Shown here: positions 16,829 to 55,400 of the stretch, piece after piece
Layout of the letters: each line of letters begins with the position of its first letter
Position numbering within the stretch: the stretch's first letter is position 1
Assembly (NCBI GenBank): GCA_030704615.1
Contig: CM060732.1
Coordinates: forward strand, 19,778,001 to 19,842,000
From: Takakia lepidozioides
Taxonomy: Eukaryota; Plantae; Bryophyta
DNA: 64,000 nt
Reading direction: 5' to 3'
Program-made: the position numbers and the translations under genes
The notes under the pieces: model-generated
Told to the model about the DNA's origin: nothing
Database searches by the model: none
Seen by the model: the letters and a program-made list of their open reading frames with translations, nothing else

Positions 16829-18343
16829 GTTCAACAAGCACCTCCATCGCATGAAATGACATGCCCAAACTCTAACGATATCAACATTACCAGGCAAGCA
16901 ATCTTGGAAGGTGCTCTGCTTCACAAATACCCTAAGTAATTGCAACAAGAGGTCCAGAATGCAAATACAGAGTCACATACAGAAAGTTACAGTGAGATAC
17001 CCCCTAATGCCGTCTGTCTTGCTTCTTCGGCCTGGTCAGTCAGTGTCTATCTCCTGTGTGTCCTGTATTTGCTATTGAGATGTACCACTAGAGTCAACCC
17101 ACAACACACCTGCATGCTTAACTGTGCGCCATGTTAGCTTTGTGTGGGCGCTTATTTTCATAGGAGGTTGGTCCGGATTTGATCACCGGCCAATCCTAGA
17201 GTATGCTGTCGGTGGTGAGGCTGGAGTGATGACCAGCAAGACCACCAGTGTTTCTTCTATGGTGAGGCCGGGTTGATGACCAGCAGACCATAGGAGTGCT
17301 TGCGGTGGATGCAGGTGCAGGTACAAGTCTACGTTAGAAACCTATTATTCCTGCTTGAACCAGTAGTTGCAACAGGTTCTTTACCCGGTTACCTTGTAGA
17401 AAGTGGGGATTAGAGACAGGTTGACAACCGGTTGGGTTGCGAGTTTTCATCACGGAGGTGCCACCAGCTGCTGAGGGGAGTGTCGGTACAAGCACCAGCG
17501 ATACTAGTGGGTACACAAGACAAGGTGTGCGGTTTAGGCCACTTTCACCTTCAGTGTCTTCTGAGGAAGGTTCAGACTCGGAGTCAGGAGGATTCTCGCC
17601 GCAGGTGCAAGTCATTTCCGTACCATTGTTGTGGGACACGATGGAGGAGATGTATGGAGCTACCAAGGGGCCACGTAGGTACTCTGGAGCTGTGGGCACC
17701 ATCGAGCTTGATGACTTTATACAAGAGTTTGACAATTGGTGTGATTTGCAGCAAATGCGCAATCCACAACTGTTTACGCCCTTTATGGCGTGGAAGGGGC
17801 TATTCCAGCACCTTGAGGGGCCGCCCATGGATGATTACCATGAATTTAGGCGGGGACATGCGGTGGAGATTGAGGAGTGGCGAGAGTATTGGTCACCTAA
17901 CTATGTCGCAATCACTAGAGGCACAAGGGCAGCGGTGACACCAGCAGCTACACAAACATCTCCAACTACAAGCACTTGTAGTGGAACAAGTAGTGCCGAC
18001 ACTTCTGCAGGTGGTACCAGTTCAAAAGGTGCTACTGCTCCTCCTGCCACAATTACAATACATGTGCCTAGATTCAACCCGGTGGTGGAGTTCTTCCAGG
18101 AGTTGCGGAGGAACTATCAAGGTGTCCGGACAGAGAAGCTGCAAAGTTTGCAAGACTTCCAGCGCAAATCCAGTGAGAGCTTGCGAGAGGCCTACACTCG
18201 TATGAGGCGCTTGATAAGTGTGACCCAAGGGGTTACTGAAGCTCAGGCAGTCTAGTTCTGGTATGGAATTTTGGACAAGGAGCTCAAGAGAAGGGTGCGG
18301 GATGCAACCCTGTTACAAGTGGCCCAACCCACATTAGCGGATG

Positions 18344-19074
18344 TGTCGCGGCCCTTTGCCTTGAGGGCAGGGGGTCGGGACACATGAGGGGCTGCCCCTG
18401 TGGTGGGGGCAGCGGCAGCGATAGGTATGGGGGGCTGAAGCACCCTTGAGTGCCCAAGGCACTCAAGGAGGCGGAGGCGGAGGCGCTCACTAGGTGGAGC
18501 CCCGCACACCGGGTTGCGGTGGGGGTGGCTCCACAAGGGGTGGTGGTAGCTTAGCGGGACTTAGTGGGGGTGGCATAGGACTCACCATGGGGGCGGAGAC
18601 CTCGTGGTGGGAGTCGTGGGGAGTCTTGGGACTCATCACGGTCCATAGGGGCCGTGGTGAGTGGGCCAAGACTCATCGCGACTCATCACCGGGAGTCGAG
18701 GGTTTTCGTGGTGGTTCGCCATAAAATGGCATGGCTGGTTGTGAAACCCCCGCGGACAGCTACAGAAGTATATATAGGGAGTAGTAACCCCGAGAACGGT
18801 GCAAGCCCGTTGGTGACCAAAACTAGTGAGTAAGCGAGCGAGCCGGAAAGCGACCAAAGAGTGGGGAGCTGTTCCGGACTGCCAACTACCAAAGGGAATT
18901 CCCGTTGGTTCCAAATCGGTGGAGGGTTCTTTGGGAGTTCAAAGGGGGACCGTTATGCCCCGGTGAGCAGCCGAAGCTCCAAGTTGGTCCGGCGGCCAGG
19001 TTGGGAGTTAGGCACGCGCATCAAGCTAGCAACTATGACCTGAAGGGGAGCTTACCGAAGTGAGGTGCGCGACA
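18344..19074 (+). repeat. 5' LTR of the chromovirus (731 bp, TG...CA)
   Basis: Direct repeat of 24578-25302. Confidence 0.95.
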
Positions 19075-19076
19075 CT

Positions 19077-19088
19077 TGGTATCAGAGC
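19077..19088 (+). promoter_or_regulatory. Primer binding site complementary to tRNA-iMet
   Basis: TGGTATCAGAGC 2 nt after the LTR end. Confidence 0.92.
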
Positions 19089-19129
19089 TTAGAGTTCAGT
19101 ACGTGATCGTCCTTGGGATTGGCCTCATC

Positions 19130-25302: not shown

Positions 25303-25729
25303 GGATGTGTTTCTGCTGGTTGAGCGGATTGAGCTCAACATGGTGGAGGAGCGAGTTGTTACCATTGGATTTGGCAAGGACATGCCTGCACGAGGTGCAG
25401 CTGCCAGCCAACAGGTACAAGGGACTGCCCAACAGCGTGGTCAGGGGGGCAAGGTTGCCCAACCCAAGTTCCATGGAGCTTACAGGGGACCTCAGGTGTA
25501 GAGGCCCGTGGCATCTTTTGCAGGCCAACAGCAACCAGGGGTGATATGTTGGACATGTGGAGGACCCCATGTCAAGAGAGATTGCCCAGAGAGTGGCAGA
25601 AGGCCGGCACAAGCACAGCCTGCACAGTTGCAGTGTGGGCATTGTGGCAAGTATGGGCATGGAGATGCCCAGTGTCATGACTTGCACCCTGAGTTGCGCC
25701 CAGGCCAGTTCCAAGGAAACAATGGTGGC

Positions 25730-26831
25730 GGGGGCGAAACAAGTGGCAAACATGGACACGTACTTGCGACCTCTTGTTGATGAACTTAAAGAGCTATGGA
25801 GGGGGGTCCCGGCATTGGATGCTTCACTTGACCCTATGGCCGGACAATCTTTTCAGATGAGAGGCATCTTGCTTTAGACAATGCATGATTATCCAGGTAT
25901 ATTATGTTCCCCATGAACAACCCGCGTACATTCACTTGTCAATGCCGGATAATATCGATGAAAATTGGGATTGATTGAAGTAGCGGCGACAGTCTTGTGC
26001 ACCGTAGTGGGGTAGATGGCATTATGGGCCATGCACATGACAACTTTTTGTTTTTGCTAATGTGGCGGGATGTGTAGTACAAGACTAACTGTTTGCTCGG
26101 GGCTAAGCACCAAAGGGTACCATGTATGCTTGCATTGTGGCGATGATCTTGATGCACATAGCTCCCGCCATCTTCACAAGATGGTGTATCCCAACTACTG
26201 CAAATTTCTTCCTATGAGCCATCGATGGAGAAGAAGAGAGAAACACTTGTTTGATGGCAAAGAGGAAGTACGTCCCCCCCCCCTATGACACCGTCCGGGC
26301 AATTTTGGGAAGATGGATGGAAGAAGGCCCATGCGGGCACGGACGGTGAAGTGGACGTGCCCGACATGAAATGAATTTCAATCTTCTACGAGTTGTCATA
26401 TTGGGCGGTACATATTCCACAAAGACACCGTCAATATCCCTATGCATGCATGTGATATCGCACATTTGGTATGCGTTGCATTGTCACTTTCACGTAAAAA
26501 TTTTTGTGTAAGTCTTTGTGGGTGGGGATATATGTAGGACCTGAAGATTCGCCATCTTCTAGATCCCATGCATATTGAGAAGAATGTCTGCTCGTCCCTT
26601 TTTCGGGTTCTTCATGGCACGCCGGCAAAGAAGGGAGTGGCTGCAAAAGGAGATTCTCTCGGTGTTAGAAATGAGCTTGAGGAGCAGGGTCGCATGCGCT
26701 ATCTATGGGCCGAACAAAATGGTGTGGACCCAAAAGGTGTTGTACGGTGGAAGTATAGGCGCGCACCTTGGCAATGGACAAAGGAGGAATACAAGAAAGT
26801 GATAGCCACCATAAGTGTTGTCCGAACACCA
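25730..26831 (+). pseudogene. CACTA/En-Spm Tnp2-family transposase fragment with introns
   Basis: MDTYLRPLVDELKELW, MHDYPG, GLSTKGYHVCLHC, FYELSYWA|DLKIRHLLDPMHIEKNVC (intron 26408-26537). Confidence 0.88.
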
Positions 26832-28988: not shown

Positions 28989-30848
28989 TCAAACTTGCAG
29001 GTACCACTGCCAGGTTTGGGTCAACCCTTCCATCAAAGGAAGGTGACATGGCGCGCAATTACGCACATGGTCCTTCCAAATCATGCCATCCCGACCCTCC
29101 AAGATCAGGACTCCTGAGGGCAACACCTCTCGAACCCTCAAAATAGTACGTCCTGCAGTCACATCCAAGGTCGTAGGAGCAGTCTGCTGGAGATAAACAT
29201 AGTCACCCGGGTTGAATCTCCGATAGCCCCCACCACGTATGGTAGCATACCTCAACGTATCACGATGTTGTGCAATGGCAAGGTTCTCGAAAGCCATGGG
29301 CATGACTTTCTTGAACAACTCTGCACGCTGCTCACATGCACGTGCCCACACGTCCGGATCGTCAAGGTTAAGAACTGTAGCAGCTTCTCTGCGAATGGAT
29401 GTAGGCAAATCCGGCTCTCGGCCAAAGAGAAGAAAGTATGGTGAGAAGGAGGCAAGTGATGCTTGCTTGCTGAACCTGTAGCCCATGGCTAACCAGGGTA
29501 ACTGAAGGTCCCAATCTCGTAGGTGTCCATTCTGCAAGCCATACTTGCGCAAACCCCTCTTTACTGTCTGAACAACTCTCTCTGCCAAGCCATCGGCCTC
29601 ATGATGATCCCGAGAAGTGGTGCGGTGGTCTATCAAGGCCTTGTCACACAAAGCCTGAAACTCCCCCAAGAACTCTCTCCCTTGGTCCGTGAGTACCTTA
29701 GCTGGAGCACCGAATCGGCTAAGCACACAATCCAAGAATGCATACGCAGCTCCCTCACTAGCCTTATCAGGCAATGGAACCAATTCAATCCACTTGGAGA
29801 AGTGCTCTACCATCACCAACACGTACTTGTTGTGGCGCATGGTCAGTGGCAACGGCCCTGCGAAGTCAAGACTCCACCTGTAGCCCAATCCCATGATCGG
29901 AAGAGGGTGCAATTGTGGAGTAGGGGCGTTGAATGAAGCACGCACCCTGTCACACACCATGCACCTAGCCACAAATTGTTGCACCTCTGTGTGCATACCA
30001 CGCCACCAATACTGCCCCTGCAGTAGACTATGAGTGCGTCGCACCCCAAAATGCCCCAACTCCTCATGGGCATGCCGCACTAACCGTGTCCGCTGTGTTG
30101 GGTGAGGCACAATCCTCACTCTACCATCCTCCCACACTCGGAGCAGGTGTGTCCCCTCCCACTTGAACCTCTTGGCTCGTTGTAGGATCCGATCCCTCTC
30201 CTTGGCAGTCACAGTGGCTGCAGTGTCTCCAGTGCGGAGGTAGTCCAACACAACTGAATCCTCATGTATATCTTTGGCGCCACCTTGCTCATTGCTGGCC
30301 TCAGGGTCCTCAGACACTTGATCTACAGTCATCTTTGTTGCAGGTCCAACCTGGCCTTCCGCTGCCAAGATACACAGAAATGCAGATGCAAGCCATCCGG
30401 GCACCATCTCCTCGTCCGTCTCACCATGCCACCGAGCTCCAGTGTTATCCTGCTGGCTCGTGCATGGATTGCAACTCAACCCATCTGCATTGCGATTGAC
30501 CAAACCCGGTCGATGCACCACCTGAAAGTCATACTCTTGAAGGATGAGTGCCCACCGTACAAGCTTCCCCGTAAGCTTGTTTGACTCCATCAACCACTTG
30601 AGTGGTTGGTGATCCGTGACAAGGGTGAAGAGATTGCCGTATAGATAGCACCTGAAGTGTGCCACGGCCCACACTGCAGCTAAGCATTCTCCCTCATATG
30701 AGCTATACTTAGACTCTGCAACGTTGTTCGAGCGGCTAGCATAAGCCACTACAAACTCTCTTCCCTCATCATCCACCTGTATGAGCACCGCTCCAAGCCC
30801 TTGCATGCTCCAATCTGTATGCAACTGAAAAGGACGCCCCCTGATAGG
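28989..30848 (-). pseudogene. RNase H and integrase of the DNMT-gypsy
   Basis: HTDWS, YEGECLAAVWAV, TDHQPLKWL, AHEELGHFG...CMVC, DDE core. Confidence 0.93.
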
Positions 30849-31802
30849 TCATCTCAAGATGGGCGCCGAGGTCAACCTCGCCTTGAGCTCTTGAAAAGCT
30901 TGTTCTTGCTCATCTTCCCACTGCCACTCCTGGTCCACCTTGGTTAGCTTGGTTAGAGCCTTTGCAATGGCACTAAATCCCTTAACAAACCGTCTATAAT
31001 AGTTTGCTAACCCCATGAAAGCTCGAACTCGGCTCACATCCGTGGGGCGTGGAACCTGTGCAATGGACTCTACCTTATTTTGCTGTACCCCCAATCCTCC
31101 AGGATATATCATGTGACCCAGATACTCAATCTGGTTGTGGAAAAACTTGCACTTTCCCGGATGTAACTTCAATCCGTGCGCCCTCAAGCGCTCAAATACC
31201 CCCTGAAGGTGTCTCTCATGCTCTTCCACCGTAGCACTAATGATGATGATATCATCTATGTAGCACCGAGCAAACTCCACCCCTGCTAGAATCCTGTCTA
31301 TGACTCTCTGAAACTCTGCCGGAGCGTTCTTAAGCCCAAATGGTAAGAACCGCCACTGGTATAGGCAATCCTTCCCGTGCTCATTGATCCCCCAGAATGC
31401 CGTCTTTTGCTTATCCGCCTCCTTGATCGGCAACTGGTGATATCCGGATCGTAAATCCAACGTGCTAAAGACCTTGGCATGCCCAATGGCATCAAAGATC
31501 TCCTCTGGTGTTGGCATGGCATACCTATCGGACTTGGTCTGACGATTTACAGGCCGGTAATCACCGCACATGCGTCTCTCCATCCAATTGCCATAGACAT
31601 CCTTCTTGGTTGGCATCACTGTGGCTGAAGCATACTCTCCCCCAGATAGCTCCACCAAACCAGCCTCCCAAAGGTCCTGAGTTCTCATCTGAATCAAGGA
31701 CCTCTCCATGTCACTGTATCTATAGGGTCTCCAAAATATTGGCGTGTCAGTAGCCAATTCAATGCGAATCTCTTGACCCTTCAGTGCTCCTAAGTCCTTC
31801 AA
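30849..31802 (-). pseudogene. Reverse transcriptase of the DNMT-gypsy
   Basis: [41 protein letters not shown]. Confidence 0.95.
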
Positions 31803-32259
31803 ACTGAAGGCAAAGCAATTCTTGTAAGCCCTCAGGAACCACCGTATACGTCGTCTCTCTCCTCCGGTGACAATGGGTCCAATGTCAGGCTCCCAATTGT
31901 CCTCTGTAACTGCAACCTTAAGTCCAGTGGGCTTAGAGGTAGAGGATGCGTCCCGTGGTTGCTATGCCGCAACCTCTTGAGCAGTACTCCCTGCCTGCTC
32001 AGTCAATGACAAGGCCTCATCCTGCCCCATCATCTCATCCTTGAGGACCTCATCAACCCGAGAAGAATCCCCAACCTCATCCATCACAGCTGCCTTGGCT
32101 GCCAACTCCTTCTGAACCTCGAGCACCTCCCACGTGTGCCATGGATGCGGCCTGCACCTCGTGGTCCTCACCTGCTCGCCCCCACTCGCTGCCTGTACCG
32201 TCTCGGTATGCAGGGAGACCATGAAGGGAAGTGTACTCCGTACTCTGCGCTGCTCGGCC

Positions 32260-33215
32260 ATAGCCAAGCTGATAATCCAGGTCAAGCAATTGAGATCCAT
32301 TGCTTGCCCCAACACCTGATGACGTGATGCCTCAGAAAGAGATGGCACCGCCGTGGTACCAGTGGTAAAACCCATTGCCCGCTCGCGCTCGTCAGCATTG
32401 GGCTCCACTAATTGTTGCAACTGGCTATCCCACAAGATGCCAGGTCCACCATCCCGAAAAACATGGGATCCTGGGAAGCTGAGCAGTGTAGGTAATGATG
32501 CTCGTGGTTGACCCACCCTGTTGACCACTGCCAAAGGCGAACGGTCATCGTGTCTCATACGTTGAGACTGCCTCCCTGTGTCCAAAATGCTATCCACTGT
32601 GAGGTGTGCTGGCCGCTGCACCCCATCAAATGCATGCTTGAGCAGTGCGGGTGGCATCAAATTAGTCCACCATAGCCGTGGACGATGAGCCCGTGACCCC
32701 ACTGCAGCTGCATCCAGCAACACTGCTGACCCAAGCCACGACCGGACTTGATACACACTGGCCATCACCCTGGCCCGAGAATCACCCATCAGTGGCACAT
32801 TCTCCAAGATGAATGCTGGAGATACAGCTTGATGAAGCTACAAGTGACGCAAAACCCCGCACCATCTCCCAAAATAGACCCGTCCTTGAGTCTCGCAATC
32901 CATTGTCATGCCCGGCTGATGAATGCCCTTGGCAGGGCCAACCTGCCACTACCAGATCAATGGAGCCAACCCGCTCCAAATCCTGCGCCCCCAGCAACGA
33001 AATGTCTGCTGGCAAGGCTTGTTGGTATCCACGAACTGCAGACACTGGCAACAAATCAGGATACTGCTGTACCAACTGAGCAACATGGCGCAGTGAGACG
33101 CGTCGTGCAGTCTCATCCCTCTCCACATACAGGTAACGTCGAACTCGTACACCTGCCTGCAGTACTGCAGCCAATCCAGTGCTGATTCCGCCAAACAAGT
33201 CCAGAAGGCATATGC
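32260..33215 (-). pseudogene. C5-cytosine DNA methyltransferase domain inside pol
   Basis: Motif I LLDLFGG, II YVE, IV AGWPCQGHS, VI ILENV, VIII HRPRLWW, IX ERERAMGF, X VLGQAM, in canonical order; one frameshift (~32855) and one TAG. Confidence 0.93.
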
Positions 33216-34164
33216 CTTCATCCGGGCACTGCCACACAAGAGGTGTGGTGTCCAATGGCGACAACTGAGGTGGTCCTGGTGCAATCACCGCACTCTCATC
33301 TTCTCCTGACGGTACGAAGGCCTCTACCCAGGCTTGTTGTACCCGTCCATCAGCAGCCTGCTGCAAATTCTTGCTCGTACCCCATAATGGAGTGTGAGCA
33401 ACCATGGCAGGCAACTCCGCCATACCATGCATGTCATCCTGCTCTGCTGGAGGTGACACATCCTCTGCATGGGCATTGCCTTCCAGCAACTCTCCAGGCC
33501 AACTAACTGCAGCTGTAAAGGCGGCTAGTGTTGGCATCTTGCCCCGCTGGGCAGCCACAATACCCCCAATGAATGTCACAGGGAGCTGTGCACGACAACC
33601 ATCCCCTGACTGCCATCCAGGCCTGTAGGATGCTAACTCCTCCCAAAAGTCCAGGGTGAAGCCCATGGGATATAACACTGTCCCACCAACAAGGACATCG
33701 TAAGAGACCGCGTCTGTCACAATGGCCTTGACTCGCATCACTGAGCCATCTACAGGATGATCTGGTTGTAGTCCAATGGCCAACTCACGCCGTGTCATGC
33801 CCCGAGCTCTGATCCTCCCAGAGATGTGTGTTTCTGGAAATGACAAGGCTCCATATCCGCCTCCATGAGGCCCAAACCGTCCCTATGTTCATTTGTTCGT
33901 ATCAGGACTTTGTCCATCCCTTCCCGGTCTTTTCTCTTGGCACCCCATCCGAAAACAACCCAAGTACATCAGGCGGGAGCCGTGGGTGAAACGCCGCCCC
34001 CACGGTACCGGACGATGATGACGATGACAGTGATAGTGACAGTGACAACAACAATGAGCATGGAATTAACCAGGAGGATGTGCACGCCATGGAGGATCTC
34101 TTAATGCATCATGTGAAGTTGGGAATCCTTCTGCATCATGACTTTCACATCATACAGATCTTAG

Positions 34165-34938
34165 GTGTTACCGGCTCCCAGGCGGGATGGTCCACCTCCT
34201 GCTCCTGAGGGAGGAGATATGGGAGGCATGGGATTCATGTGCGGAGCAGCACTACCACTAGTGCGGGTGGAGTCTGCTGCAGCCGTGACTCGAGGAGCAG
34301 CACGAGTTCCTGAGCCACGAAGTGCAGAGGTGGAATTGGATCCACAGCGTGGGGAGGCAAGCCGTCAGGCGAGGCTTCCTCAGTCATTCACATTGGCGGA
34401 GACAGTGTCGACGCCATCCATGGCACCTAGTTCTCGCCCGACTGTTACCGAGGCGGAGGTTACTATGCCATTGGGGAGAGCTACACGTGCAGCACTGACA
34501 CCTGCTACCAAGGCTAGTGCAACCGGTGTAATATTGGGGGCAGCCACCTCTGTGTGTCAAGCCCCACTGTTCTCGGCAACCATGATTGCGACGCCGGGGG
34601 TAAGACCAGCTGCAGTGTTCAGACTAGCAGCAACACTCTGCGAGAGTGGGGAGATCACTTCATCTTCTGCGGAGTTACTGGAAGGTGTAGTGGCAGAGGG
34701 ATCCTCGGATTTGAGGGTCAAGACTGCCACGGCTGCGCCATGGCAAGCTGCAGCTGCCAGGTTGACGGAGTTGCCAGCTAGGCCAGCCTTTGAGCGCGCC
34801 ATGGTGACACCTGGAGTTGTCTTGTTAGACAACCAGGGAGGCATTTTCACTTTGAGTGGACCGGCAGGCAAGAAGCACCGGCCATTGCGGGTCTTGTTGG
34901 ACTTAGGAGCTCAGCCACTGATGTTGGGCAGAGCTGCT
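34165..34938 (+). pseudogene. Gag-pol linker and N-terminal half of the aspartic protease, probably the same gypsy family
   Basis: AAAVTRG linker motif; ends RVLLDLGAQPLMLG (degenerate D-S/T-G-A), then breaks abruptly into AT-rich DNA. Confidence 0.65.
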
Positions 34939-35912
34939 AATGTGTCATTGCAACCATTTCATTATAAGCGAAATGCAAACAACAACCTTCAATGTGTGTG
35001 TGCATCAAATATGTCATTCAATAATTATATGTATGTGCGCAACGTACACGCATGCAAAATTTCAAACCCAAACAAAATCATTTGCCCCCCCAATGACGCA
35101 TTCACCCTATCAACCAATTTTGGTTTATTAATGTGAAAAAAAATCCTCTCATGCCATTGCACCCAACAAACGGATGTGGCTCAAGCTTCATTTTTTCCTA
35201 CATGTGCTTAAATATGTGTGCAACACCTGTACAAAGATCCAGCAGGGTTAAAAATTATTATTTAAATATATATATATATATATATGCCTCCCCAACGACG
35301 CACTCACCCTTGCACCAATTTTGAATTAAATCGAATTTAAATTAATTTAAAATAAATATTTGCATTTAGAAAATATATGATTGCGGTTTTGAGGGGCGTA
35401 CTGATTTTATTTTTAGCTCTTTTTTGTTCTGTGACATCAAGCTTTGCACCACTACATCCATGCAAAAAATGGGACCAAAAAAAAATGGAAAAAAAATAAG
35501 TGTGTTTCTAGGGTCACTTTTGCAGAGCTCTCTATGAAGAGTGCATGAAGTTGAAGATAACTCAACTTTAGAGTGCAAATGAGAGAACAAAATCTGGTTA
35601 TGGGTCCAAATGACTTTTGTTTACTCCCAAATTTTTCACGCACATTGCATATGCTATCATTAAGCATATGGCTTGAAAATGGAATAAAAAAAAAATCATC
35701 TGCAGACGAAACACAATTTTCCGTCTCTATGATACGTAGCTGCGTTCAACACTAGAATGACCCATTGAATCAACTTGGTTCAAGCTCATATTTGGTCCAC
35801 ATGTGCATAAGTATGTTTAGATCACATATGCAAAGTTGCAACCCACACGAACAACAATTTTTTTTACATCAATCGATTAATCGGATGTATACAAAGTACA
35901 TCATGAGAATAT

Positions 35913-40072: not shown

Positions 40073-41545
40073 GGGGAGTGCTTGCGCGTGAGCCTGGCCA
40101 CGTGAGCCTGTGAGCCCAGCCAGGCTCACGCCACGTCAGCAAGGTTTCCCACGTGCAAGACCTAATTCCGCGGATGCCACCTATTTCCGCGGAACTGTAG
40201 GCGACTACCACGCCCCAGATTTGCCAACATTAATTTCCGAGAAGTCTCATTCCTCATCCAAATCTTAGTCGAATGAGAAATCACGGGTGGTTTGTGGATA
40301 ATTTTTGTCCACGGGCACAGGATATTTCAGAGAGTACAATGTCATGTTGCGTAATGAACACGAAGGAGAATGAGTTTGTTCTAACGAAGTTCCGTCCCCC
40401 CAATTCACATCCACTTTTCATTGATAGATGTTCTCCAGACAAACACCAGGAAATCCCTAAAGCGTCTTTGCGGTTTATGAAAAAACATGGTGCAGAACAG
40501 GTTGGCAAGATTTGCAATGCAAGACACGAAACAAAGAACAACAGGGCCAGCAACCATACAAAATGCAAAAAACAGTCCTAAAAAAAGAATGCTTTCATTT
40601 CTCAAATCAAGGTTGCGTCAACGCAAGGTTGATTTGCATCACCCTCACAAAAAATAAAAAATAAAAAATAAATAAAAATAAAAATGATGCTTTCATTTCT
40701 CAAATCAAGGTTGCGTCAATGCAAGGTTGATTTGCATCACTCCCCAAGGAGGAAGAAAAAAACAAATATTCAAAAAATGATGCTTTCATTCTCAAATCAA
40801 GGTTGCGTCGACGCAAGGTTGATTTGCATCACTCCCCAGGGAGGAAAAAAATAAAAATAAAAAAAATAAAAAAATCAAAAAATGATGTTTTCATTTCTCA
40901 AATCAAGGTTGCGTCAACACAAGGTTGATTTGTATCACCCCCAGGGAGAAATAAAAAATAAAAAATAAAATGAAGTCGTATGTCTGTCGATGTATGTCAC
41001 GTCATCAATCGTGTTGTGCGTGCCACTACCATTTGTTGCATTCGTTCCTCAAACTCATTTGTTCATTTGCGAACACATCAAGTCACATTCAAATGAACAT
41101 TCTCGGAAACCAACCTCGTATTAATACAAGGTTGATTTTGAAAACTTCAAATCAACCTCGTGTTACAAGGTTGATATCAGTTCTAGGAAATCAACCTCGT
41201 GTTAATACAAGGTTCATTTCAAGTTCTCTGAAATCAACCTCGTGTTAACACAAGGTTGATTTCAGTTCTAGGAAATCAATCTCGTGATAATACAAGGTTC
41301 ATTTCAAGTTCTCTGAAATCAACCTCGTGTTAACACAAGGTTGATCTCTGCGGACGCCCTAAACCCTTAATCCATCTCACCTTCAGATGGTGAAATCCCA
41401 CGGTTATATCTTTGTGGTGACCTGGCACAACCTTGGGTGGGCTCACGCCAACGCCACGTCAGCGCTGTGAGCGTAAGCTCACGCCACATCACCATTGTAT
41501 GAGCGTACGCTCACACGCCAGGCTCACGCGGTAGCATCGTTGAAG
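40073..41545. mobile_element. Non-autonomous TIR element inserted in a LINE-derived repeat
   Basis: Inverted ends share GCGTGAGCCTGGC; host repeat breaks at ...CACACAAGCA and resumes at TCAATCTG; internal palindromic tandem repeats. Confidence 0.7.
40590..41345. repeat. Two arrays of palindromic repeats (AATCAAGGTTGCGTCAACGCAAGGTTGATT x4; AATCAACCTCGTGTTAACACAAGGTTGATT x~6)
   Basis: Directly visible repeated hairpin units. Confidence 0.85.
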
Positions 41546-42239
41546 CAGACATCAATCTGATGTGTGTGAGATGCCCAAAAACTAGGCCTCAGAAGGGGCT
41601 GGGCTTTTGGCTCAGCCTCAACTTTTTCAAAGTTAGTAAACATAGGTACATACACAATTCCCTTGATAGATTTGAAGAGAGCGTCTCTTTGGTGAGAGAA
41701 CCCCGGACAGTGTATCAGAAAATGAGTATTGTCTTCAGATTGCCTACACAACGGGCAATTGCACTCTCCCTTTCCTCTCTGTTTCTGTTTGCTGTTCAAA
41801 GGTAGGCTTCCTGCCCTGAGTTTAAATTTCAGTCTAGTGCCGAGAGTGGATAGACCCTTGAGGTCATCCAAGATGTCCTCCCCCATGTCACTGATTGGAA
41901 ACAAGTTCAGGGAAGTTTTTTTGCCTAACTTCATTTCCATCAGACAATCTCATGGCAACAGACATGGTTGGACACTACAGCCTCTAAGTCAGATTTATCT
42001 TGCAGGGTGAAGACTTGCGGTTCCAGGTCCAGGTCCTTGAGAATCTTTTCTACTGTCTTCTGCCAAGACTTAGCCTATTTGACAGGTCGGTGGGCGGTCA
42101 TGTTTCCAAGATATAGAGTCGATTAACTTAGGATATCTGGCGTTGGACATATGCTGCAGCTGACCCCACCATCTGACCTCCCCCCCCCCACAACCCATTT
42201 TTTTTCATTGTTGCCCCCTCTCTCCCTCTGTCTCCCTCT

Positions 42240-45200
42240 CTACTGGGAATTGACAGTTTGCTATCAGTGTGGATTTTTGTTTTCTCATCCTCTATCAGGT
42301 TTTTTCATCCATACCGGATGAGCCACCACGATGGACACTGAATTACCTCTAGGATGGTTCTTTTGGCCTTTTCATTCCTCCTCTATTGACTCTCATCCAT
42401 ACCGGATGAGTCACCATGGAAGAAAAGAATTACCTCTATGGAGGTTGCCAACAGCATCCTATTTTTTCATCCGTACCGGATGAAAAACTACTAGGGTAAT
42501 AATTTTTCATTCCTTTTTTATTGACTCTTTTTATCCATACCGGATGGTCTGGTAAGGAATGATAGAATTAACTAGATGGAGGTAAGGCGCTGCCACGGAT
42601 GATATTCTCTATTTTTTCATCCTGACACAAGTGATCTGTCTATGGATGATGTGATTATGACCTGGAATTGATCTTTACTACCCCTAATTATGATTAATTA
42701 CGGTGGAAACCCTAACCCCTACCCCAAAACCTATTTTTAACCTTGCTATGGATGAAATCCGTCAAGGTATATGGATTCGTCCTACTGTTTTTCATCCACG
42801 GATGAATAATCGGGGGACAACCCTATGTCGTCTCTCCCGCTGTCAGAAGCACGCGATGTGATTCTGAGCTCTCGAGGAGAGTGTTATGGCGGGCGTGCTT
42901 CGGTGGCTGCCCCGTTTGTGGTGTCGTACCCATGCTGGACGAGCGCCTGGGGGGGCGCGAAGGCAGCGCCTTGTCTCTCTTGCGGGAAACACCGCTATGA
43001 AAGTAGTGACATCTTCCCTCCTCAGGCTTTTTCTGTGCTTAGCAAGGATGCTTATGATGGGAAATTCTCTCCCTCCTTTCTAGTGCCTTGCGATTGTGCT
43101 TGCTTTGCTTCACTGCTTATGTGCTTTGTGGAGGCGGCTTGCTACGGGTGGTGATGGCGCATAACCCTCTTCCCCAATCGCTTAAGGTGCCTTTGGAGTT
43201 TAGGGATTCTCATGTTCTTATCTCTTTCTCTTGCTTTTGAGTTTCTTAGTTGACATCGATGACAAGTGTGAGGGTCTGTGATTCACCTGGGGTTCCACAA
43301 TCCTCACTAACCTGTTGGTTTTTGTGGGGGCTTGTGATGGGACCAGGTGAGGATCCTCACCTACTTTGAAGTTTCTTGAGCATGCAGATTGGGATATGGG
43401 CTGAGGAGACCTAGGGTTGTGCGCGCTGTGAGGTGGCTGCTGGCTGCAGTCCCAATTTCAACCCAACTGCCCTTGACTTGATATGCTCCAGCCTGCGTTC
43501 TGGCCTTTGTCGTTCTACCGCCGATGTGCAGCTCGGCCTGACAGGCTTGTTTCCTGAGGCTTGCATACAAACCATACCCTACCTTTTAATCTTTGACAGC
43601 ACAACCTGTGGATTACTAAGCTAGGTTGTAAGTTATTTTGGCCAAAGAAGATCTGGTTTTTGGTGGTATGTTTTTGGCGGTTTTGGGTAACTATGGATCT
43701 TATGGCCTTGAAGTTTAAGGCGGCAGCCTGGTAGGGTACTGCCCTGCTCCTTGTCAGGCCTACTTCTGATGTGTACTGGATCGTAGTAAGGTTTCTTTGC
43801 ATGTGTTAGCATGGAACTCCTGAAGGATGAGGATGGTAAGCTGCAATGGAATCCTACCTACTGTTTTGGATCTGTCATGACATCAAGCCTATGACCTGCC
43901 ATCTGTTTTTTTTATACAAAAGAGGCTGGATCTTGGCTGTTCATGCTGTTTGTTGGTACAAGTCTTGAACCTGCAATCTGACAGGTTGCATTCACATTCC
44001 CTTGATACCTTGTATGATCACATGTCTCGGGGTGAATACAAATGATATGGAATCTACTTCATCTGGATCAAGTTGGACTGCTTGGTGGGATACTGAGATT
44101 CTGACAAAATGCAGGTTGGTCCTTATGCCTTGGCTGATGCATGACCTGCCATAATTAATGGCTGAATTGGTAAGCTGCTGGTATATGTACAGGCTGAACC
44201 AAGAGGCCTTGCAGCATGCACAGGGACAACAATATCTTATCTTGTCCCACACAAGAACAAACCCTGCCCTCCCACCTTGCTTTGTCTTGGATGATTGGGT
44301 GGTGTCTTTTGGGATGATTTGACAAGACTGGAAATATGAGATAGTGCCCTATCCAGAGCTGTTTATGTCTTTAATTGGCAATGACCCTTATGGGTCTTGT
44401 CCATGTCTTGACATGACGTGAATATCTTCCCTCTCCCTCTCTCTTTTTAATTTTTTTCTGCACAGGGGTCAACTCTGAGGTTAAGAAAACCATGCTTTGT
44501 CGCATTATTAGACCTGCCTTGGAGCACGGATCTGCAATATGGGTTGATAAATCTGACTTAGAGGCTGTAGTGTCCAAAGCCATGTCTGTTGCCATGAGAT
44601 TTCTCTGATGAAAATGAAGTTAGGCAAAAAACTTCCCTGAACTTGTTTCCAGTCAGTGACATGGGGGAGGACATCTTGGATGACCTCAAGGGTCTACCAC
44701 TCTCGGCACTAGACTGAAATTTAAACTCAGGGCAGGAAGCCTACCTTTGAACAGCAAATAGAAGTAGAGATGAAAGGGAGAGTGCAATTGCCCGTTGTGT
44801 GGGCAATATGAAGACAGTATTCATTTTCTGATACACCTTCCGGGGTTCTCTCACCAAAGAGACGCTCTCTTCAAATCTATCAAGGGAATTGTGCCTGTAC
44901 CTCTGTTTACCAACTTTGAAAGTCTCAAGGCTGAGCCAAAAGCCCAGGCCCTCCTGAGGCCTAGTTATTGGGCAAATCACACACAACAGTTTGATGCTTG
45001 TGTGAAGGGATTTCTAGAGGATATCTGGAAAACCCAAATTAATTCTATATATGAAGGTAAGTTTTACTACCAACGTCAGCCCCTGACAGAGGCAGGTTTT
45101 GTCCCATTTGTTTCCGCTCAAACTGGGCGCGGGGTCAATGGCCACAAGGCTACGGCAAACAACGTCTTATGAGTACAATCTTTTAACTTTTTCTGCACCC

Positions 45201-47700
45201 TCTCTCCCTTGTGGTTTGTTTACTTTTGTGAACAACAAAAAAGAGAGGGAAGATATACATGTCATGTCAAGACATGGACAAGACCGCTAAGGTCATTGTC
45301 ATTGAAAGACAAAACAGCCCTTTACAGGGCACCATCTAACATTCCCTTTCATGTTTACAATCTCATTTGAATACCCCATTACATTTCAGGGTCTCTGAAA
45401 AAATAGGGTGGGAGGGTGGGATTCCAGGTCAGTCATATCATGAAAGCACCATAGTTTGCACCATCATTTCAAAAACTCATTTCAAACTCATTTCAAAAAC
45501 CAGATTGCAGGTTTGGGGATATTTCCCAGAATCAAGCTCATAGCATTTCAGTTGAAAACAGCCAGCCATTCATGCCTTAAGTATTTGCAAGTAGACACAA
45601 CACCTTAGCAAAAAAAGTTGTGAAAACCACATTGCAGGTCTTGGGACAGTCCTCAAGACTCATGCTAAAAAACAATTCAAGTTGAGTTTGAAACAGTCAA
45701 ACAAATATGCCTTAAGCATTTGCTGGTTTACATCATGTTTCCTCTTGCCCTATTGGCATGGTTCAAGACATGGTATATATCATGAGGTTGCATGCCAACA
45801 TCCAGGTTTTGAACAAGTCTTCTCCCTAGAGGCTATTGCTGGCCTGAAGGTGACGTTTCAGTGTCGTGTCACAAGCAGGAATCATAAAACAGAAGCAAGG
45901 CAAATTATCTCAAATTTGCCTGCTATCAGCCCTCAAATTCAGACTGCTATGAGAGCCTTAATGAGTGTGTGTGTTCCCTAAACAAGGCGTACTTGTTTGA
46001 CACAACAGAGTCAAGCTGAGAGGTTTCATTCCAAAGCTAGTTTGGTGATGTATCAATGCCAAACCACAAGCAGTAAACATGAAACCTATGCAAGGTTGAG
46101 TGTTCCAAAACAGATCTAGGTCTTGAGTGGTATTCTAGAACCTCCAAAGATCTGAGTTAACAAAGAAACTCAGAAGAACCCTGCCTGCAGCCAGGCCTTT
46201 AAATTGAGAGTCTTTAACGGGCCAAGGTAAACAAAATCCAGGTCTTGAGCATTTCACTTCCCTAAGAAACAGTACTGGTTTGAAGTTGATGTTTCAGAAC
46301 CAAGATACAAGCAAGATTCTTAAAAAGGAAGAAGAAACAACAGGGTTGAGCCACCTTAAGCAGGTATAGGCCTGGAATGGTATTTTAAGGCCTCATAAAA
46401 TAGCTCTGCCAAGGTGAAAGAGCAGCTCAGAAACCCCCATTTGTTATCAAGCCATGAAACCAAAATGATATGAGGGCCTTGAAGAATGTGTGTTATCTAT
46501 CAAAGCCTATCCTTTTGATCCATCAAAGTCATACCAAGAAGTTTCATTTCAGAGCCAAGTATCAAAGCAGTCAGAGTAATAACTGCTATTTTGTACCCTT
46601 GTACCCTTCATAGCTTAACTCCTACACATGCAAATGTGGTTGTAAAAAACCAGAAACAGGGGTAAGGAGAGAAGCAGATCCTCATTGGAGCCATCTTGGA
46701 GCAGGTCTGAAGCGGAAGCGGCATGGTGGCAGTTTGAAACATCAAATGGCATCAGCAGCTTAGGCAGTAGCAGTATCCACATTTGCAAGAACAGGAGCTG
46801 CAAGCTTCAAGAAATCAAGACAAGTGAAGACCCTCATCTGTGCCCGTCCCAAAAACCACCACATAACGATGTGTGTTAGTGAGGATGCAGCAGGTGAGTG
46901 GCAGGTCTTCACAGTTGCTATCCATGTCAGTGTTGAATTCTAAAGCATGTACAGATCACAATTCAAGCAAGGGTAAACTCAAAAAACCTTGAGTGTTTGT
47001 GGTATGCCCTGCACCATGGCATCCAACAGATAGTCTCCAACAGAACGCAATCAAAGTAGAAGCGTTCACAGATAGAGAATGGCTTATACAAAAAGAGAGC
47101 AACATGTAATCTGTAGATAAATAGGGATAGAGTACTTCCCAACGAGGAGTAAAAGCGCCGCTGCAAAATAAAGAACCATAAGTTTCTGAGCAAAGCGATC
47201 ATCGCTTTGTCGTCTGCCAGAGAGGAATCTGCCTAACCGCCAATGCGCATCCCAAGAGCCAGCCATCACGAGTACCATGTAGCAGCAGGGGAGCAGGTTT
47301 ATACGGTGCATCATCAAGGTTCACTGAAGCACGAGTTCAGTGCTGTGAAATGCGTCGGCCTGCTTAAGGCATAACTTCCCGATTTCTCATCCAGGGTGGA
47401 TGAAAAATCACATTTTATCAAGAGAAGCACTTTGTCAATGGATGACATCCAATAAAAAGGTATCTTTTAGGGTTATGGTATAGGCTTAGGTTTAATAACT
47501 GCCATCATTTATGATGGTAGTTTTATTATTCTCTTGGATTTTAAAATAGGTAACCATTATTCATGTAGTTCATCCAGTTTAGATGAAAGAAATACATGGT
47601 AAACCAAGCTTTCTGTACATTAAGTTTCATCATCCTATAATAATATCATCCAAATTTGGATGAAAAAGGTTGGGATGAAAAACTAAATAACCTCAAAAGG
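42240..47700. mobile_element. Fold-back-like structure: diverged inverted arms around a LINE-derived core
   Basis: 44340-44450 is the inverse of 45237-45337; 43290-43390 is the inverse of 46795-46890; TTTTCATCC/GGATGAAAA motif clusters at both outer ends. Confidence 0.55.
44545..45172 (+). pseudogene. LINE ORF2 3' end including the stop codon (same family as the 38.6-42.2 kb copies)
   Basis: Near-identical to 41524-41990 in the opposite orientation; CPLC...EDSIHFLIH. Confidence 0.75.
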
Positions 47701-49523: not shown

Positions 49524-51846
49524 GTACCATGCCAGACAGATCATTCGGAGGGCAATGGAAAAGGGAGCCATACCCAAACCACCTTATGGAATTACACAGG
49601 TTGGCAAATCCTGAATCATGTCACCTTCCATTTGTCGCATGTGCATTAATGAGATGGATTCGATGCAACGTATGTGTGTAATTCACTAATTGTTGGGGGG
49701 GGGGGGGGGTGCATAGGTATCGTGGGATGCACTCATTTAGGCTTGGATGGCAGTCAGGGGAAGGCCGGCGTGTGCAGCTCCCTATGACGTTCATAGGAGG
49801 AGTTCCGGTTGCCCAGCAAGGCAAGATGCCGACACTGATAGCATTCACAGCTGCAGTGAGTTGGTCTGGAGAGTTTCTTGAGGGCAACGCTCATTCAGAG
49901 GATGTGTCACCTCCGGGAGAGCAGGTTGACATGTATGGTATGGCGGATTTGCTTGTCATGGTTGCTCACACTCCATTGTGGGGCTCGAGCAAGGATTTGC
50001 AGCGGGTTGCTGATCGATGGGTGCAACAAGCCTGGGTAGAGGCTTTTGTATCGTCAGGAGAGGAGGACAGTGTGGGGATTGCACCAGGACCACCTCAGTT
50101 GTCACCATTGGACACCACACCGATCGTGTGGCAGTGTCCAGATAAAGGCATTTGCTTTCTGAACTTGTTTAGTGGGATCAGCACTGGATTGCTACAGACA
50201 GGTGTACGGGTACAGCGTTAGTTGTATGTGGAGAGGGATGAGACTGCACGACACATCTCACTCCGTCATATTGCTCAGTTAGTGCAACAATACCCTGAGT
50301 TGTTGCCGGTGTCTGCAATTTGTGGATATCAGCAGGCCTTGCCAGCAGACATTTTGTTGCTGGGGGCACAAGATTTGGAGCGGGTTGGCTCCATTGATTT
50401 GGTAGTGGTAGGTTGGCCCTGCCAAGGGCATTCATCAGCCGGGCATGGCAATGGATTACGAGACTCGAGGTCGGGTCTGTTTTGGGAGATGGTGCGGGTT
50501 TTGCGCCACTTACAGCTTCATCAAGCTGTATATCCAGCATATATTGGAGAATGTGCCACTATTGAGCGATTCTCGGGCCAGGGTGATGGCCAGTGTGCAT
50601 CAAGTCCGGCTGTGGCTTGGGTCAGCAGTGTTGCTCGATGCAACTGCAGTGGGGTCACGAGCTCATCGTCCACGGTTATGGTGGACTAACTTGATGCCAC
50701 CCGCACTGCTCAAGCGTGCATTTGATGGGGTGCAGCGGCCAGCACACCTCACAGTGGATAGCATTTTGGACACAGGGAGACAATCTTAGCATGTGAGACA
50801 CAATGACTGTTTGCCTTTGGCAGTGGTCAATAAGGTGGGTCAACCACGAGCAACACTACCTACACTGCTCAGCTTCCCAGGATCGCATGCTTTCCGGGAT
50901 AGTGGACCTGGCCTCCTGTGGGATGCTCAGTTGCAGCAGTTAGTGGAGCCTAATGCCGACGAGCGAGAGCGGGCTATGGGTTTTTCCACTGGGACCATGG
51001 CGGTGCCTTCTCTTTATGAGGCATCACGTCGTCAAGGGTTGGGGCAAGCGATGGATTTCAATTGCTTGACCTGGATTAGCAGCTTGGCTATGGCTGAGCA
51101 ACGTAGAGTGCAGAGTGCACTTCCCTTGACGGTCTCTCTGCCTATCGAGACGGTACAGGCAGTGAGTGGGGGCGAGCCGGTGAGGACCACATGGTGCAGA
51201 TATCCATGGCACAAGTCTGCTGGACTTAAGATTGCAGTTACGGAGGACAATTGGGAGCCTGACATTGGACCCATTGTCATCGGAGGAGAGATACAACGTA
51301 TATGGCAGTTCTTGAGGATTTACAGGAATTTCTTTGTCTCTCATGCTACGGTGGAGGAGCATGAGAGACATGTTCAGGTTGTGCATCGACCGGGTTTGGT
51401 CAATAGGGATGCGGATGGATTGAGTCGCAATCCATGCACGAGCCAGCAAGATGACACTGGAGCTCGGTGGCATGGTGAGACGGACGATGAGATGGTGCCG
51501 GGATGGCATGCATCTGCCTTTTTGTGTATCTTGGCATCAGGAGGTCAGGTTGGACCTACAACAGGATGATTGTAGACGGAGTGTCTGAGGACCCTGAGGC
51601 TAGTGATGAGCCAGGTGGTGCCAGAGATATACATGAGGATTCAGTTGTGTTGGACTATCTCCGCACTGGAGACACGACAGCTAGTGTGACTGCCAAGGAG
51701 AGGGATCGGATCCTGCAACGAGCCAAGAGGTTCAAGTGGGAGGGGATACACCTGCTTCGAGTGTGAGAGGATGGTTGGGTGAGGATCGTGCCTCACCCAA
51801 CACAGCGTGCATGGTTAGTGCGGCATGCCCATGAGGAGTTGGGGCA

Positions 51847-51964
51847 TGCTCGTAGTACCGCCACTATGCTGGTGTGTGATCGATGCTCAAGAGGTTGGCA
51901 CATGGGATGCTTGACACCACCTCTTGAGAGGGTTCATGATGGAGATTGGTTATGTCCACATTGA
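51847..51964 (+). pseudogene. PHD finger at the integrase C-terminus
   Basis: MLVCDRCSRGWHMGCLTPPLERVHDGDWLCPH*; the missing first CxxC is in copy 1 (RCMLCGSA). Confidence 0.88.
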
Positions 51965-52239
51965 TTGAGATAGTGGCAGTGGATATGATTAGTGGCAGCT
52001 AACAAGACATGGGAGGCCAAACTCATAGGAGTCAATACCCGAGATCTTAGGCTCAAGTTCACAGGTTGCAAGACGGTGACTAACGATGGGGCAACTCTTG
52101 TACCCGGCCTCTTGATCTATCGAGTTTGAGTGTAGTAGGGACAGTGATGGAGGACTTAATGAGGCTATGGCCACTATCACATCTTATGGCTACCTGGACT
52201 TAGAGGGACCTAAGCGCCAGCTAGGGGGGCGATTGTGAT

Positions 52240-52425
52240 GGACTAGTGGCAGCCTAGTGATGGACTAGTGGCTGCACTAGTGGTGGCTAGTGGCAGCCTA
52301 GTGGTTGGACTAGTGGCTGCACTAGTGGTGGCTAGTGGCAGCCTAGTGGTGCACTAGTGGTTGCACTAGTGGTGGCTAGTGGCAGCCTAGTGGTGCACTA
52401 GTGGTAGACTAGTGACAGACTAGTG
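52240..52425 (+). repeat. CTAGTGG-based minisatellite at the start of the LTR
   Basis: About 16 CTAGTG units spaced 11-13 bp apart. Confidence 0.85.
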
Positions 52426-55400
52426 TTTGGTGTGCACATGTGTTGTGTGGTTGTGGACAGCGATGTAGTTGTGTAGCAATATGTATGCGCACGACATATG
52501 CTATCTAAACCAAGTAAATGTTGGGATGAAGGGTAAATAGCGATCATCGGGGTATAGATAAGTTTTAATATATTGATTATAATATAACATGCATCCAATT
52601 ATAATTATAATAATTTGGAATATTCTTTAATTTCATTAGAATAGGGTTTTATTGGTAAGATCTGAATAACATATCTTAGTCAATTGAGCTATATCCTGAT
52701 TTTATCTTTATCCTCAGGGTAAATTTTGGCAATGTTGTGACGTAGGTATTTATATATACCCAAACAATATCTCAGATAGTATTTTAACGGGCCGGAGGGT
52801 AACTTAAAATTAAAGAAATCTATTAACCCGCCTCACACCTGGATTCCAGTTCAAGATGCCAACTTCCCCAAATGCGGAGGGTAAGTTAAAACCCATTTAT
52901 CCACCCAACATTGGTCAAACCGCTGTTGAATGGGTTTTTATATTTTAGATATCCCAACAACAAGCTGCATGTTGGAAGATTCCAGTTGAGTTGGAAATCC
53001 TCTGGTCTAGATCTCACCACCTAGTTAGAAGAGTCAAGCAGGTTTGGTTTTCAACTAGGGTACAGGTCCCATTGCCCGCGCAACTAAGCCAAGAGTATAG
53101 ACACACGATAAAGACACCCGGCCTGCGCCAATCCAGTCCTGCCGCAAAGGGTGGGGCCCAAATTAAACCCGAGCGGTGCAATAATGCAAGATAATTTGTA
53201 TTTTGTATCTCCAAGGTTTGGAGCCGCTCAAATTTGCATTTGCCCCCCCACATTTCGTCTACATAACGGGCTCCAAACCTGGCCCGTCGGTATGTTTGGA
53301 TCCCTTTTTGACTACACGTATCTGCAACCCACATTACTCCGGGCATTTTGTCATGGCAGTGACGAAGGACCTACTGCCAACGCAGCGAGGCGGATCCCCA
53401 AACTTGCCAGCAAGGTCAAGATAGTGAGGCACCATGCTTGCACGGCAACATGGTTCTTTTCTACTCCTCCGCTATCTTGGAAATTGGCCCCGCCAAATGG
53501 GCCGGTACAATGCATTTGGCGGGGCATTTTGGCTGGCACTGCTTAATTTAGCCAATATATCATAATTTTTTTAAGTTTAAAATACTTAAATTTATATGAT
53601 AAGTATGTTCCTGGTGAGATGTATTGCAAAACTATAATCAGGAAAGGTGAAAACATACATATAGATATATGTGTGTGTGCGTGCGCGCGTGAAAAGGGTT
53701 ATTTGTCTTATGTTTATTGCACATTTGACTCAATCATTGCAGATTGACACTTCTCCAAAAATGCATGCATCCATACATTAACCCCTAAAGGACAATCGGG
53801 AAATTACTTGCCACGCTCTAATTCCCATGGATGATATTGGATGAAAGTGAACCTTGAAGATGAATTGTACATGTCAGAGAGGAGCACATGTGGGAATTTA
53901 CAGCGCCAAAAAATCATAAAAGCTCTGCTCCCTAGAATTTTGCAAAGTGCCAAGGTTTCATGAAATCCAGTATTAGAGCACCATTGACCTGCCTACGTGG
54001 CAGTCAAATGGGCAATGTTCAAGAGAACATCTAGGGCTGAAAATTTATCATAATGCCAAATATTTTGGACAAGGCACCATGAAATGTTACTGTGCACTTA
54101 CTTACCAGTCACCTCATGGAAAGAAGCCAAAACAAGATTTTTTACCCCCCCAGATTTCACATACAAAGCAACCCCCCCATATTTTGGGCATTTTGGTCTG
54201 AGATTCTGGGAGATGACCTGTTGGTTGCCCCTTATCCAGATTTAGGAGGCCATTTCTTCAAGAAAAAATGTAAAATCACCAAATTTGCATGGTCAAAGCA
54301 ATTTTTCCTCTCTTTTTTTGTTCATGGTTTCAACTTGGCCAATTTTCTTTTGTTATAATATACTAAATGGAACGGTCAAAAGTGCTACAATTTTCTGAGG
54401 ACCTTCATGTAGTAGGTAGGGATGAAATGGAATGGTTCATCCAGCTGGATGTAAGGGGGGCGGGAAGTTAAAGCTATGAAATGGAGGGTATGGCCCACTT
54501 TTTGGGAAAACTCCCAAAAGTTAGCTCCTCCTTTAGGGGTTAATTGCAGGAGCAACATATCATTGTTGATCAAAAGCTGATCAGGCGTGACATGGTATCA
54601 TGGTATATTTTCTCTTAGTCTTTTACGAAGAAGCAAATGTTCTATGTATCCACGGCTCTCTTCTCTGCCATGGCAGCCTTTTTAGCATCTTTCTCTAGCT
54701 ACTCTCTCGCTTTCTGATCATTAGCTTTATCCTCTTATTCTATTCTTTTTTGTGTAAATTCAGCAATGTAACTTGGATCAGTAACCAACCTGCTCCTTCC
54801 AATGGTTTTGGGTGGTTGGATGCTAGGGAGAGATAAAATCGCAGACAAAGATCGATCTACAAACTCCATTCCATGTATCTCTGTGCTACTGGAGAGCCCT
54901 GTCTACAAACCAGCCCCTTTTTTTAAGGAAAAAAATAGCCAAAAAGCTACAAATAATATGGCGTTGACGTAGTTATATAAAAACATGGGATGAAAATACT
55001 TTGTTGGAGCCTTCATTTTTGTATCTCACTTTTGTTGCTATAGCCAGATCTATATAGGTACACCGCTAGATATCGCCAATGCAACCATCGTGTCTGTTCG
55101 TGTAGCCAAAGTGGTTAGAGCATTGAAGTGAGGTAGTCGCTCCCAAGATCGCTTCCTAGGCGTCGCCAGCTTAGCGCAGTCTTTCATCTAAGCTGTGTCA
55201 CCCAAATACAATTTGCATGAATGGATTCTCGCCAGGTGTGTCAAGGCTTTGATATGCAAGTACTCGTGTTTACATTGGCACTTATTTGCTTCAATTCCCT
55301 CTTTAAATTCAATCAATTTAAGGTACAAGGAGCGCCGTTTTGTAGAAGAGTGGAAGCACTGGCAACAAATGAGCTAACGACTGCTGTAACTGGAGTGGTT

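Follow-up and report, generated by a model that had tools for sequence, protein, structure and literature searches.

A split PHD finger at the integrase end of a probable dead Gypsy-DNMT3 retrotransposon in Takakia lepidozioides

Introduction

The window analysed here is a stretch of 64 000 nucleotides from contig CM060732.1 of Takakia lepidozioides, and within it a short open frame resembles half of a PHD finger joined to the debris of a Ty3/gypsy retrotransposon that also encodes a cytosine methyltransferase (DNMT). A preliminary description read this as a histone reader and a DNA methylation writer in one polyprotein, analogous to DNMT3 with its ADD domain, which would steer integration to silent chromatin. 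In DNMT3A/B the ADD domain adjoins the catalytic domain and regulates it. The locus therefore raises the question of whether the PHD finger is a regular part of the integrase in this family, what it might bind, and whether it is made together with the methyltransferase at all.

Results

The PHD finger is found in the window as two distant halves:

51848..51964, plus strand: second half of the PHD (Cys3 to Cys6), PF00628 E 8.9e-10, with TGA as the last ligand codon
28966..28986, minus strand: first half of the PHD, from Cys1-x2-Cys2 through the shared Ala and not in frame with the integrase; same-organism contigs run on from it into the second half

The minus-strand piece terminates in the residues R-C-M-L-C-G-S-A, with the Ala codon at 28968-28966, and a small deletion or frameshift near 29036 has put this first half out of frame with the integrase. 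On the plus strand, resumption at an Ala codon was seen as first described, but at 51848-51850, one base after the 51847 given earlier, and the frame is then open to a TGA at 51962-51964. A PF00628 search, suggested in the preliminary description, recovered the 38 aa of the second half alone (38.9 bits against a Pfam cut-off of 24). Joining the halves at the shared Ala gave a Cys2–Cys3 spacing of 11 residues, the spacing seen in all 17 land-plant-like homologs that were scored (26 were examined, 9 of which fell outside the full pattern). The whole C4HC3 motif is present in homologs, and the proposal of a C4HC3 finger made from two halves is upheld by the domain match and the spacing.

Contigs from the same organism, drawn from a single sample sequenced in three runs and from a plant metagenome, revealed a high-copy family. 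In other copies the first half continues into the second, with loose ends at 28967 in X1, X2 and X5, and the second half continues into the integrase at 51847. The last ligand was also correctly described as a Cys codon turned into TGA: Cys is encoded in 266,694/267,337 of the summed depth of X1 contigs (~99.8 %), and the stop is peculiar to the window copy. One X1 contig spans the 51847/51848 joint, but with just 28 letters on one side it falls under the threshold for counting as support. A conserved His-x3-Cys-x2-Cys-His motif was also observed just before the PHD linker in homologs, at ~29040-29070 (minus strand) in the window; CxxCH ahead of the linker occurs in 140/210 homologs and is a possible extra zinc site.

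Integrase searches returned 327 and 451 matches, and the best 120 of each (240 in all) were listed. The PHD profile found the finger in 210 of these 240, and among the matches listed with at least 200 aa after the integrase core it was present in 205/207, whereas a chromodomain (PF00385) was found neither in the 240 matches listed nor in 33 rescanned proteins. A PHD finger in place of a chromodomain, as had been proposed, is thus kept by members of the family at large. Across 80 loci, the PHD was present in 60 of the 63 with enough flank and a DNMT lay upstream in 30 of the 33 with enough flank. Among the matches listed, named relatives come from Calypogeia (up to 83 % identity), Riccia, Marchantia, Sphagnum, Klebsormidium and chlorophytes, and in the integrase tree the window copy falls among sequences from liverworts (FastTree 0.977), which makes a bryophyte host likely. 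The FastTree trees of integrase and DNMT are exploratory, with one long outgroup or none, and the integrase tree left out 71 integrase-only proteins. The structural model of homolog P0129 displays the core, a long helix, a beta barrel and then the PHD at pLDDT 85-92 (mean pLDDT 74.8 and pTM 0.44 for the model overall), and it matches foamy virus and Ty3 integrases. This model supports a position of the PHD after the SH3-like C-terminal domain, where chromoviruses carry their chromodomain.

The remaining parts of the element are scattered over the window as follows:

17641..18363, plus strand: 5' portion of gag, split by an inserted chromovirus (matches P0245 aa 1-228 at 65 % identity)
25307..25700, plus strand: continuation of gag with zinc knuckles (P0245 aa 225-354)
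34264..34950, plus strand: late Gag and the first part of the protease, in the orientation opposite to the complementary piece
33200..33878, minus strand: second part of the protease and linker (tblastn with P0245 and P0249), starting where the 34264-34950 piece stops
32256..33200, minus strand: DNMT3-like cytosine methyltransferase, frameshifted (PF00145 E 1.3e-8; own HMM)
31956..31964, minus strand: in-frame UAG then CAA CCA (CAR-YYA context), a predicted readthrough site between DNMT and reverse transcriptase (RT)
30530..31961, minus strand: RT and RNase H (PF00078 E 5.9e-32; PF17917 E 1.6e-35)
29025..30101, minus strand: integrase with H2C2 zinc finger, DDE core and C-terminal region (PF17921 E 3.6e-16; PF00665 E 1.1e-13)
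49733..51847, plus strand: second-copy fragment (DNMT, 33-nt RT scrap, end of RNase H, start of integrase) abutting the PHD second half, with 87-90 % DNA identity to the minus-strand piece
52223..52496, plus strand: polypurine tract with a single terminal repeat subunit (TG...CA, ~263 bp), recognised from the sequence

The order protease, RT, RNase H, integrase is that of Ty3/gypsy elements and the best RT match is Ty3. The polypurine tract is common to the window copy and its relatives. Depth of the same-organism contigs drops to single-copy level past ~52525, and loose ends are found at 52496. The window retains a single B subunit of the terminal repeats; an A..B-A-B arrangement with 4-bp target duplications was seen in 4/5 full relatives. 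These split repeats, with A of ~340 bp and B of ~115 bp, were found on integrase-type elements at L006, L018, L075, L077 and L056. The insertion in gag is itself a young Ty3/gypsy chromovirus (18342-25301) with 733-bp LTRs that are 97.7 % identical; its chromodomain (PF00385 E 8.8e-12) lies at 23223-23669, so that both types of reader are present in one window.

Two copies broken at the same Ala codon had been proposed to account for the halves. The shared codon was recovered, but the halves probably derive from one copy. P0245, a Marchantia Gag-PR-DNMT protein, maps to 17641-18363, 25307-25696 and 34264-34950 on the plus strand and to 33878-32124 on the minus strand. One residue, P0245 aa 654, both closes the plus-strand gag/protease piece (34950) and opens the minus-strand piece (33878), and both ends of the minus-strand piece therefore complement plus-strand pieces to the codon; by a rough estimate, the chance of one such codon-precise match is ~0.006. 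Because this second codon-precise break lies in the protease, the simplest reading, which we hold probable, is that a rearrangement cut a single copy and inverted its central part, leaving its PHD half joined to the second-copy fragment at 49733-51847; such an event would account for the break of both halves at one codon. Against an origin from one split copy, the second half looks the more mutated: compared to the closest contig, it has 5 near-fixed differences over 117 bp, whereas the end of the first half has 0 over 145 bp (p 0.017, among the rows listed). A relative-rate test with distant outgroups did not tell the two copies apart in age (private sites 14-16 vs 17-19 and 41-48 vs 38-45). 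Assembly error may also lie behind the breaks. Searches of the window found neither a continuation of the repeat left of 28966 nor the start of the 5' repeat. CACTA-type transposase-like fragments, recognised by eye, occupy 25720-26600 and 33880-34190, at two of the breaks. Several short inverted repeats also lie at 38658-45354, and together these features suggest a heavily rearranged region.

The methyltransferase is classed as non-rearranged and DNMT3-like on its best PDB matches and motifs. The domain of a relative found DNMT3A/B/C as best PDB matches (E ~2e-7), and four catalytic motifs were present in 9/11 upstream-type DNMT domains. In the window, DNMT and RT share a frame, but they are not in one ORF, as an in-frame UAG followed by CAA CCA intervenes (31964-31956, minus strand). 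A stop at the same position, 78-86 codons before RT, was found in 35 of 44 RT matches in relatives' loci, which are not independent and represent about five sublineages; of the remaining nine, read by eye, four belong to unrelated RTs and the other five seem to carry frameshifts. The stop is UAG in 30 of the 35 in-frame loci, and UAG or UAA followed by CAR in 32. The full UAG-CAR-YYA, which is the readthrough motif of TMV (PMC3159437, PMC2194720), occurs in 5/44 loci plus the window copy, while in the largest subfamily the majority of loci show CAA-CCC rather than CAR-YYA. The YYA codon is retained while encoding Pro, Leu or Ser. Among 39 DNMT homologs, 16 (Marchantia, Calypogeia, metagenomes) lack RT and stop 70-160 aa beyond the domain; three others continue further, and RT is included in six named gene models, perhaps via predicted introns. 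No stop separates DNMT from RT in P0268, P0271, P0279, Klebsormidium P0018 or several algal proteins.

Taken from its conservation and context, this stop is probably leaky and is a predicted readthrough site. The methyltransferase is consequently likely to be made with Gag, and RT-RH-INT-PHD solely by readthrough, so that DNMT and PHD would mostly be separate proteins; even in the readthrough product, ~1,000 residues separate the two. Use of the UAG as a splice acceptor was considered less likely, as three sublineages have no pyrimidine tract and the YYA is kept across different amino acids. In the literature searched, we found no paper on CARYYA readthrough in a retrotransposon.

The nearest solved PHDs include CHD4, PHF12, KDM5B, KDM5 PHD1, BHC80/PHF21A, DPF3, ATXR5, UHRF1, AIRE and BAZ2, consistent with the AIRE-PHD1/CHD4 type named at the outset. 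H3 contacts were mapped on KDM5A PHD1, with contact roles as described in 10.1101/715474 and PMC5415848, and 127 PHDs were scored, 17 of them land-plant-like. None of the 127 has an aromatic residue at the K4me3 cage position (two before His), 125 have Asp or Glu at the R2 position, and the A1 pocket is represented by Pro at W-4 in 113 and Gly at W-2 in 106. Within the land-plant-like set the R2 Asp was kept in 16/17 and the Pro/Gly/Trp of the A1 pocket in 15-16/17, and the R2-binding Asp after Cys3 is present in the window piece. With no cage aromatic and with the R2 acid and A1 pocket kept, binding of the H3 N-terminus is likely, and we rate it at roughly two chances in three. A preference for K4me0 is about an even call, and H3K4me0 targeting by the element is plausible.

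Binding may nevertheless be weak in the land-plant branch, where four of the five acidic contacts mapped for KDM5A PHD1 are gone and in 14/17 just one, the R2 Asp, is kept. Acids are present at the equivalents of E305, D306 and D315 in 0/17 each and of D292 in 2/17; acidic residues for K4 were seen before Cys1 in 2/17 and at the wall before beta-1 in 0/17, although they are usual in algal members. The acidic wall described in PMC5415848 is absent in 17/17. Chlorophyte-type PHDs most often keep three acidic contacts, and their median net charge is -5, compared to +2 for the land-plant branch.

In most chlorophyte-type members the DNMT follows RNase H and precedes the integrase; RT is part of the ORF in 73 of them and absent from it in 29 (the 29, and the total of 102, include the mis-binned P0229 and are one too high). 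In the 73 RT-DNMT-INT proteins the DNMT directly precedes INT-PHD in one ORF. A C-terminal domain resembling phage SAM-dependent, N6-adenine-type methyltransferases was found in 62/102 (atlas score 0.95-0.96; in one cluster, 36 % carry N6_Mtase; PF02086 E 0.003) and a Tudor-like barrel in 87/102 (PF21743 E 3e-4 at best, below the cut-off). Neither was found in the window element. P0056, P0083, P0094, P0047, P0051 and ~60 other homologs combine RT, RNase H, DNMT3-like domain, integrase, PHD, Tudor-like barrel and N6-adenine-methyltransferase-like domain in one ORF, and a G-patch domain lies between DNMT and integrase in P0028, P0050, P0081, P0087 and P0189. The two DNMT placements form separate groups in the exploratory FastTree integrase and DNMT trees. 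Precomputed Pfam lists had suggested that algal relatives are DNMT-less, but Pfam misses the domain in most chlorophyte-type members and our own HMM finds it in most algal relatives; the PHD therefore cannot be called older than the DNMT. The DNMT-less members P0043, P0075 and P0069 nest inside the clade, which suggests losses.

Discussion

We consider it somewhat better than an even chance, as one combined reading, that the stretch under study is the broken integrase tail of a dead, high-copy Gypsy-DNMT3 retrotransposon, that the PHD of functional copies anchors the integration complex on histone H3 tails, and that a Gag-side DNMT acts on the element's own DNA. Low-level readthrough would yield RT-RH-INT-PHD, from which protease cleavage would free INT-PHD. 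The finger would bind the free H3 N-terminus and disfavour K4me3, and this would bias insertion away from active promoters, while abundant DNMT, made with Gag before the leaky stop, would be packaged and methylate the cDNA.

The strongest alternative, which we nonetheless regard as unlikely, is that the land-plant PHD no longer reads marks and instead binds DNA or nucleosome surfaces, or is structural in the intasome. The loss of four acidic contacts and the net positive charge fit this, the PHD of BAZ1A is described as binding DNA (PMC5636791), and in BAZ2A neutralisation of the acidic wall is reported to cut H3 binding up to 17-fold (PMC5415848). However, the R2 Asp and the A1 pocket are kept, and the K4 contacts of KDM5A PHD1 are reported to be largely main-chain carbonyls (10.1101/715474).

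Somewhat less probable again is the proposal, close to the preliminary description, that the PHD reads H3K4me0 and steers or activates its own DNMT3 in cis, as an ADD domain would, so that insertion and methylation reach silent chromatin together. The pairing of PHD and DNMT is kept across green plants, chlorophyte-type members hold the DNMT directly before INT-PHD in one ORF and usually keep three acidic contacts, and a readthrough product would hold both domains. Nevertheless, the conserved in-frame stop between Gag-PR-DNMT and RT-RH-INT-PHD, together with the distance between the domains, weakens the ADD analogy in the land-plant branch, and the members that keep a PHD without the enzyme indicate that the finger is retained in its absence. 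DNMT3A/B likewise combine a DNMT3-type catalytic domain with a zinc-finger H3 reader in one gene, but with the two adjoining, whereas here a stop codon, RT, RNase H and integrase intervene. It is improbable that the PHD acts in trans or once integration is complete, keeping the proteins of the element on the element's own chromatin and tuning silencing with no choice of site: the fusions of DNMT and adenine-methyltransferase-like domains in chlorophyte relatives do suggest chromatin-writing roles, but the position after the integrase C-terminal domain is that of the known tethering modules, chromodomain and MBD (PMC6673714).

Our element fits the Gypsy-DNMT3 family described from Klebsormidium, a name used for streptophytes in 10.64898/2026.05.21.726589. 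KnitGypsy-Dnmt3 (de Mendoza et al. 2018) was reported from K. nitens only, with DIRS-like repeats and DNMT and RT in one ORF, and was inactive in yeast, a result its authors deem inconclusive (PMC5890265). Both have a Ty3/gypsy pol with a DNMT3-like non-rearranged methyltransferase, relatives of the window element share the split DIRS-like repeats, and Klebsormidium proteins are among our homologs, two of them (P0136, P0166) with a PHD. The present family differs in its occurrence in liverworts and mosses and in the stop after the DNMT; the term 'PHD' is absent from the main text and three supplement files of PMC5890265.

PHDs in retrotransposons have been called widespread (PMC6673714; 10.1101/2021.11.30.470311), and the accessible text of REXdb makes no mention of them (PMC6317226). 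Gypsy-7a_cRei of Chlamydomonas is described as having a PHD finger in its Gag-Pol and LTRs made of subparts, and it has been proposed to limit harmful insertions; the same work reports that a PHD-bearing Chlamydomonas gypsy inserted between genes 2.6 times more often than chance, although selection could account for this bias according to the authors (10.1101/2022.06.16.496473). Gypsy-7a_cRei is alike by description and differs in having no DNMT among its listed domains. Chromoviruses also carry a histone-reader module at the integrase C-terminus, but theirs is a chromodomain fold that reads methyl-lysine, whereas the ligand predicted here is the free H3 N-terminus. LTR elements that unite reader and writer through chromodomains have been described as EpiLTRs (10.64898/2026.05.21.726589). 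Like our chlorophyte relatives, these join cytosine and adenine methyltransferases with a reader in one LTR element; they are described with a chromodomain and a DNMT4-sister enzyme rather than a PHD, Tudor-like barrel and DNMT3-like enzyme, and the window element differs from them in having no adenine-methyltransferase-like domain. No paper was found that joins PHD, DNMT3 and a readthrough stop, or the first two, in one gypsy element, in a search largely of openly available paper text. The PHD is the rule in an old, partly described family; less expected are the arrangement around the predicted readthrough stop and the architecture of the chlorophyte members.

Conclusion

We tentatively propose, at rather less than even odds, a green-plant-wide gypsy clade with a DNMT3-like writer and a PHD reader that predates the chlorophyte/streptophyte split. 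Its land-plant members would load particles with DNMT from the Gag side of a leaky stop and so pre-methylate their cDNA, with a PHD-tipped integrase avoiding H3K4me3 promoters, and the chlorophyte fusion of DNMT3, integrase, PHD, Tudor-like barrel and adenine methyltransferase would represent a second kind of dual-methylation retrotransposon.

Marchantia polymorpha gene models P0229 (Mp_7g09570), P0244, P0245 and P0241-P0252 are copies of this retrotransposon family that carry annotation as PHD-type or DNA methyltransferase proteins; no paper was found naming six of these gene ids. Such annotations can inflate host methyltransferase counts. If the finger guides insertion, it would be a second reader-based targeting route in plants beside chromodomains, one that reads the absence of an active mark. 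The position of the stop makes a testable claim on why retrotransposons keep DNMTs, as the enzyme would then be as abundant as the capsid protein, in keeping with methylation of the cDNA of the element itself. The many family copies in Marchantia polymorpha make both ideas testable in a model plant.
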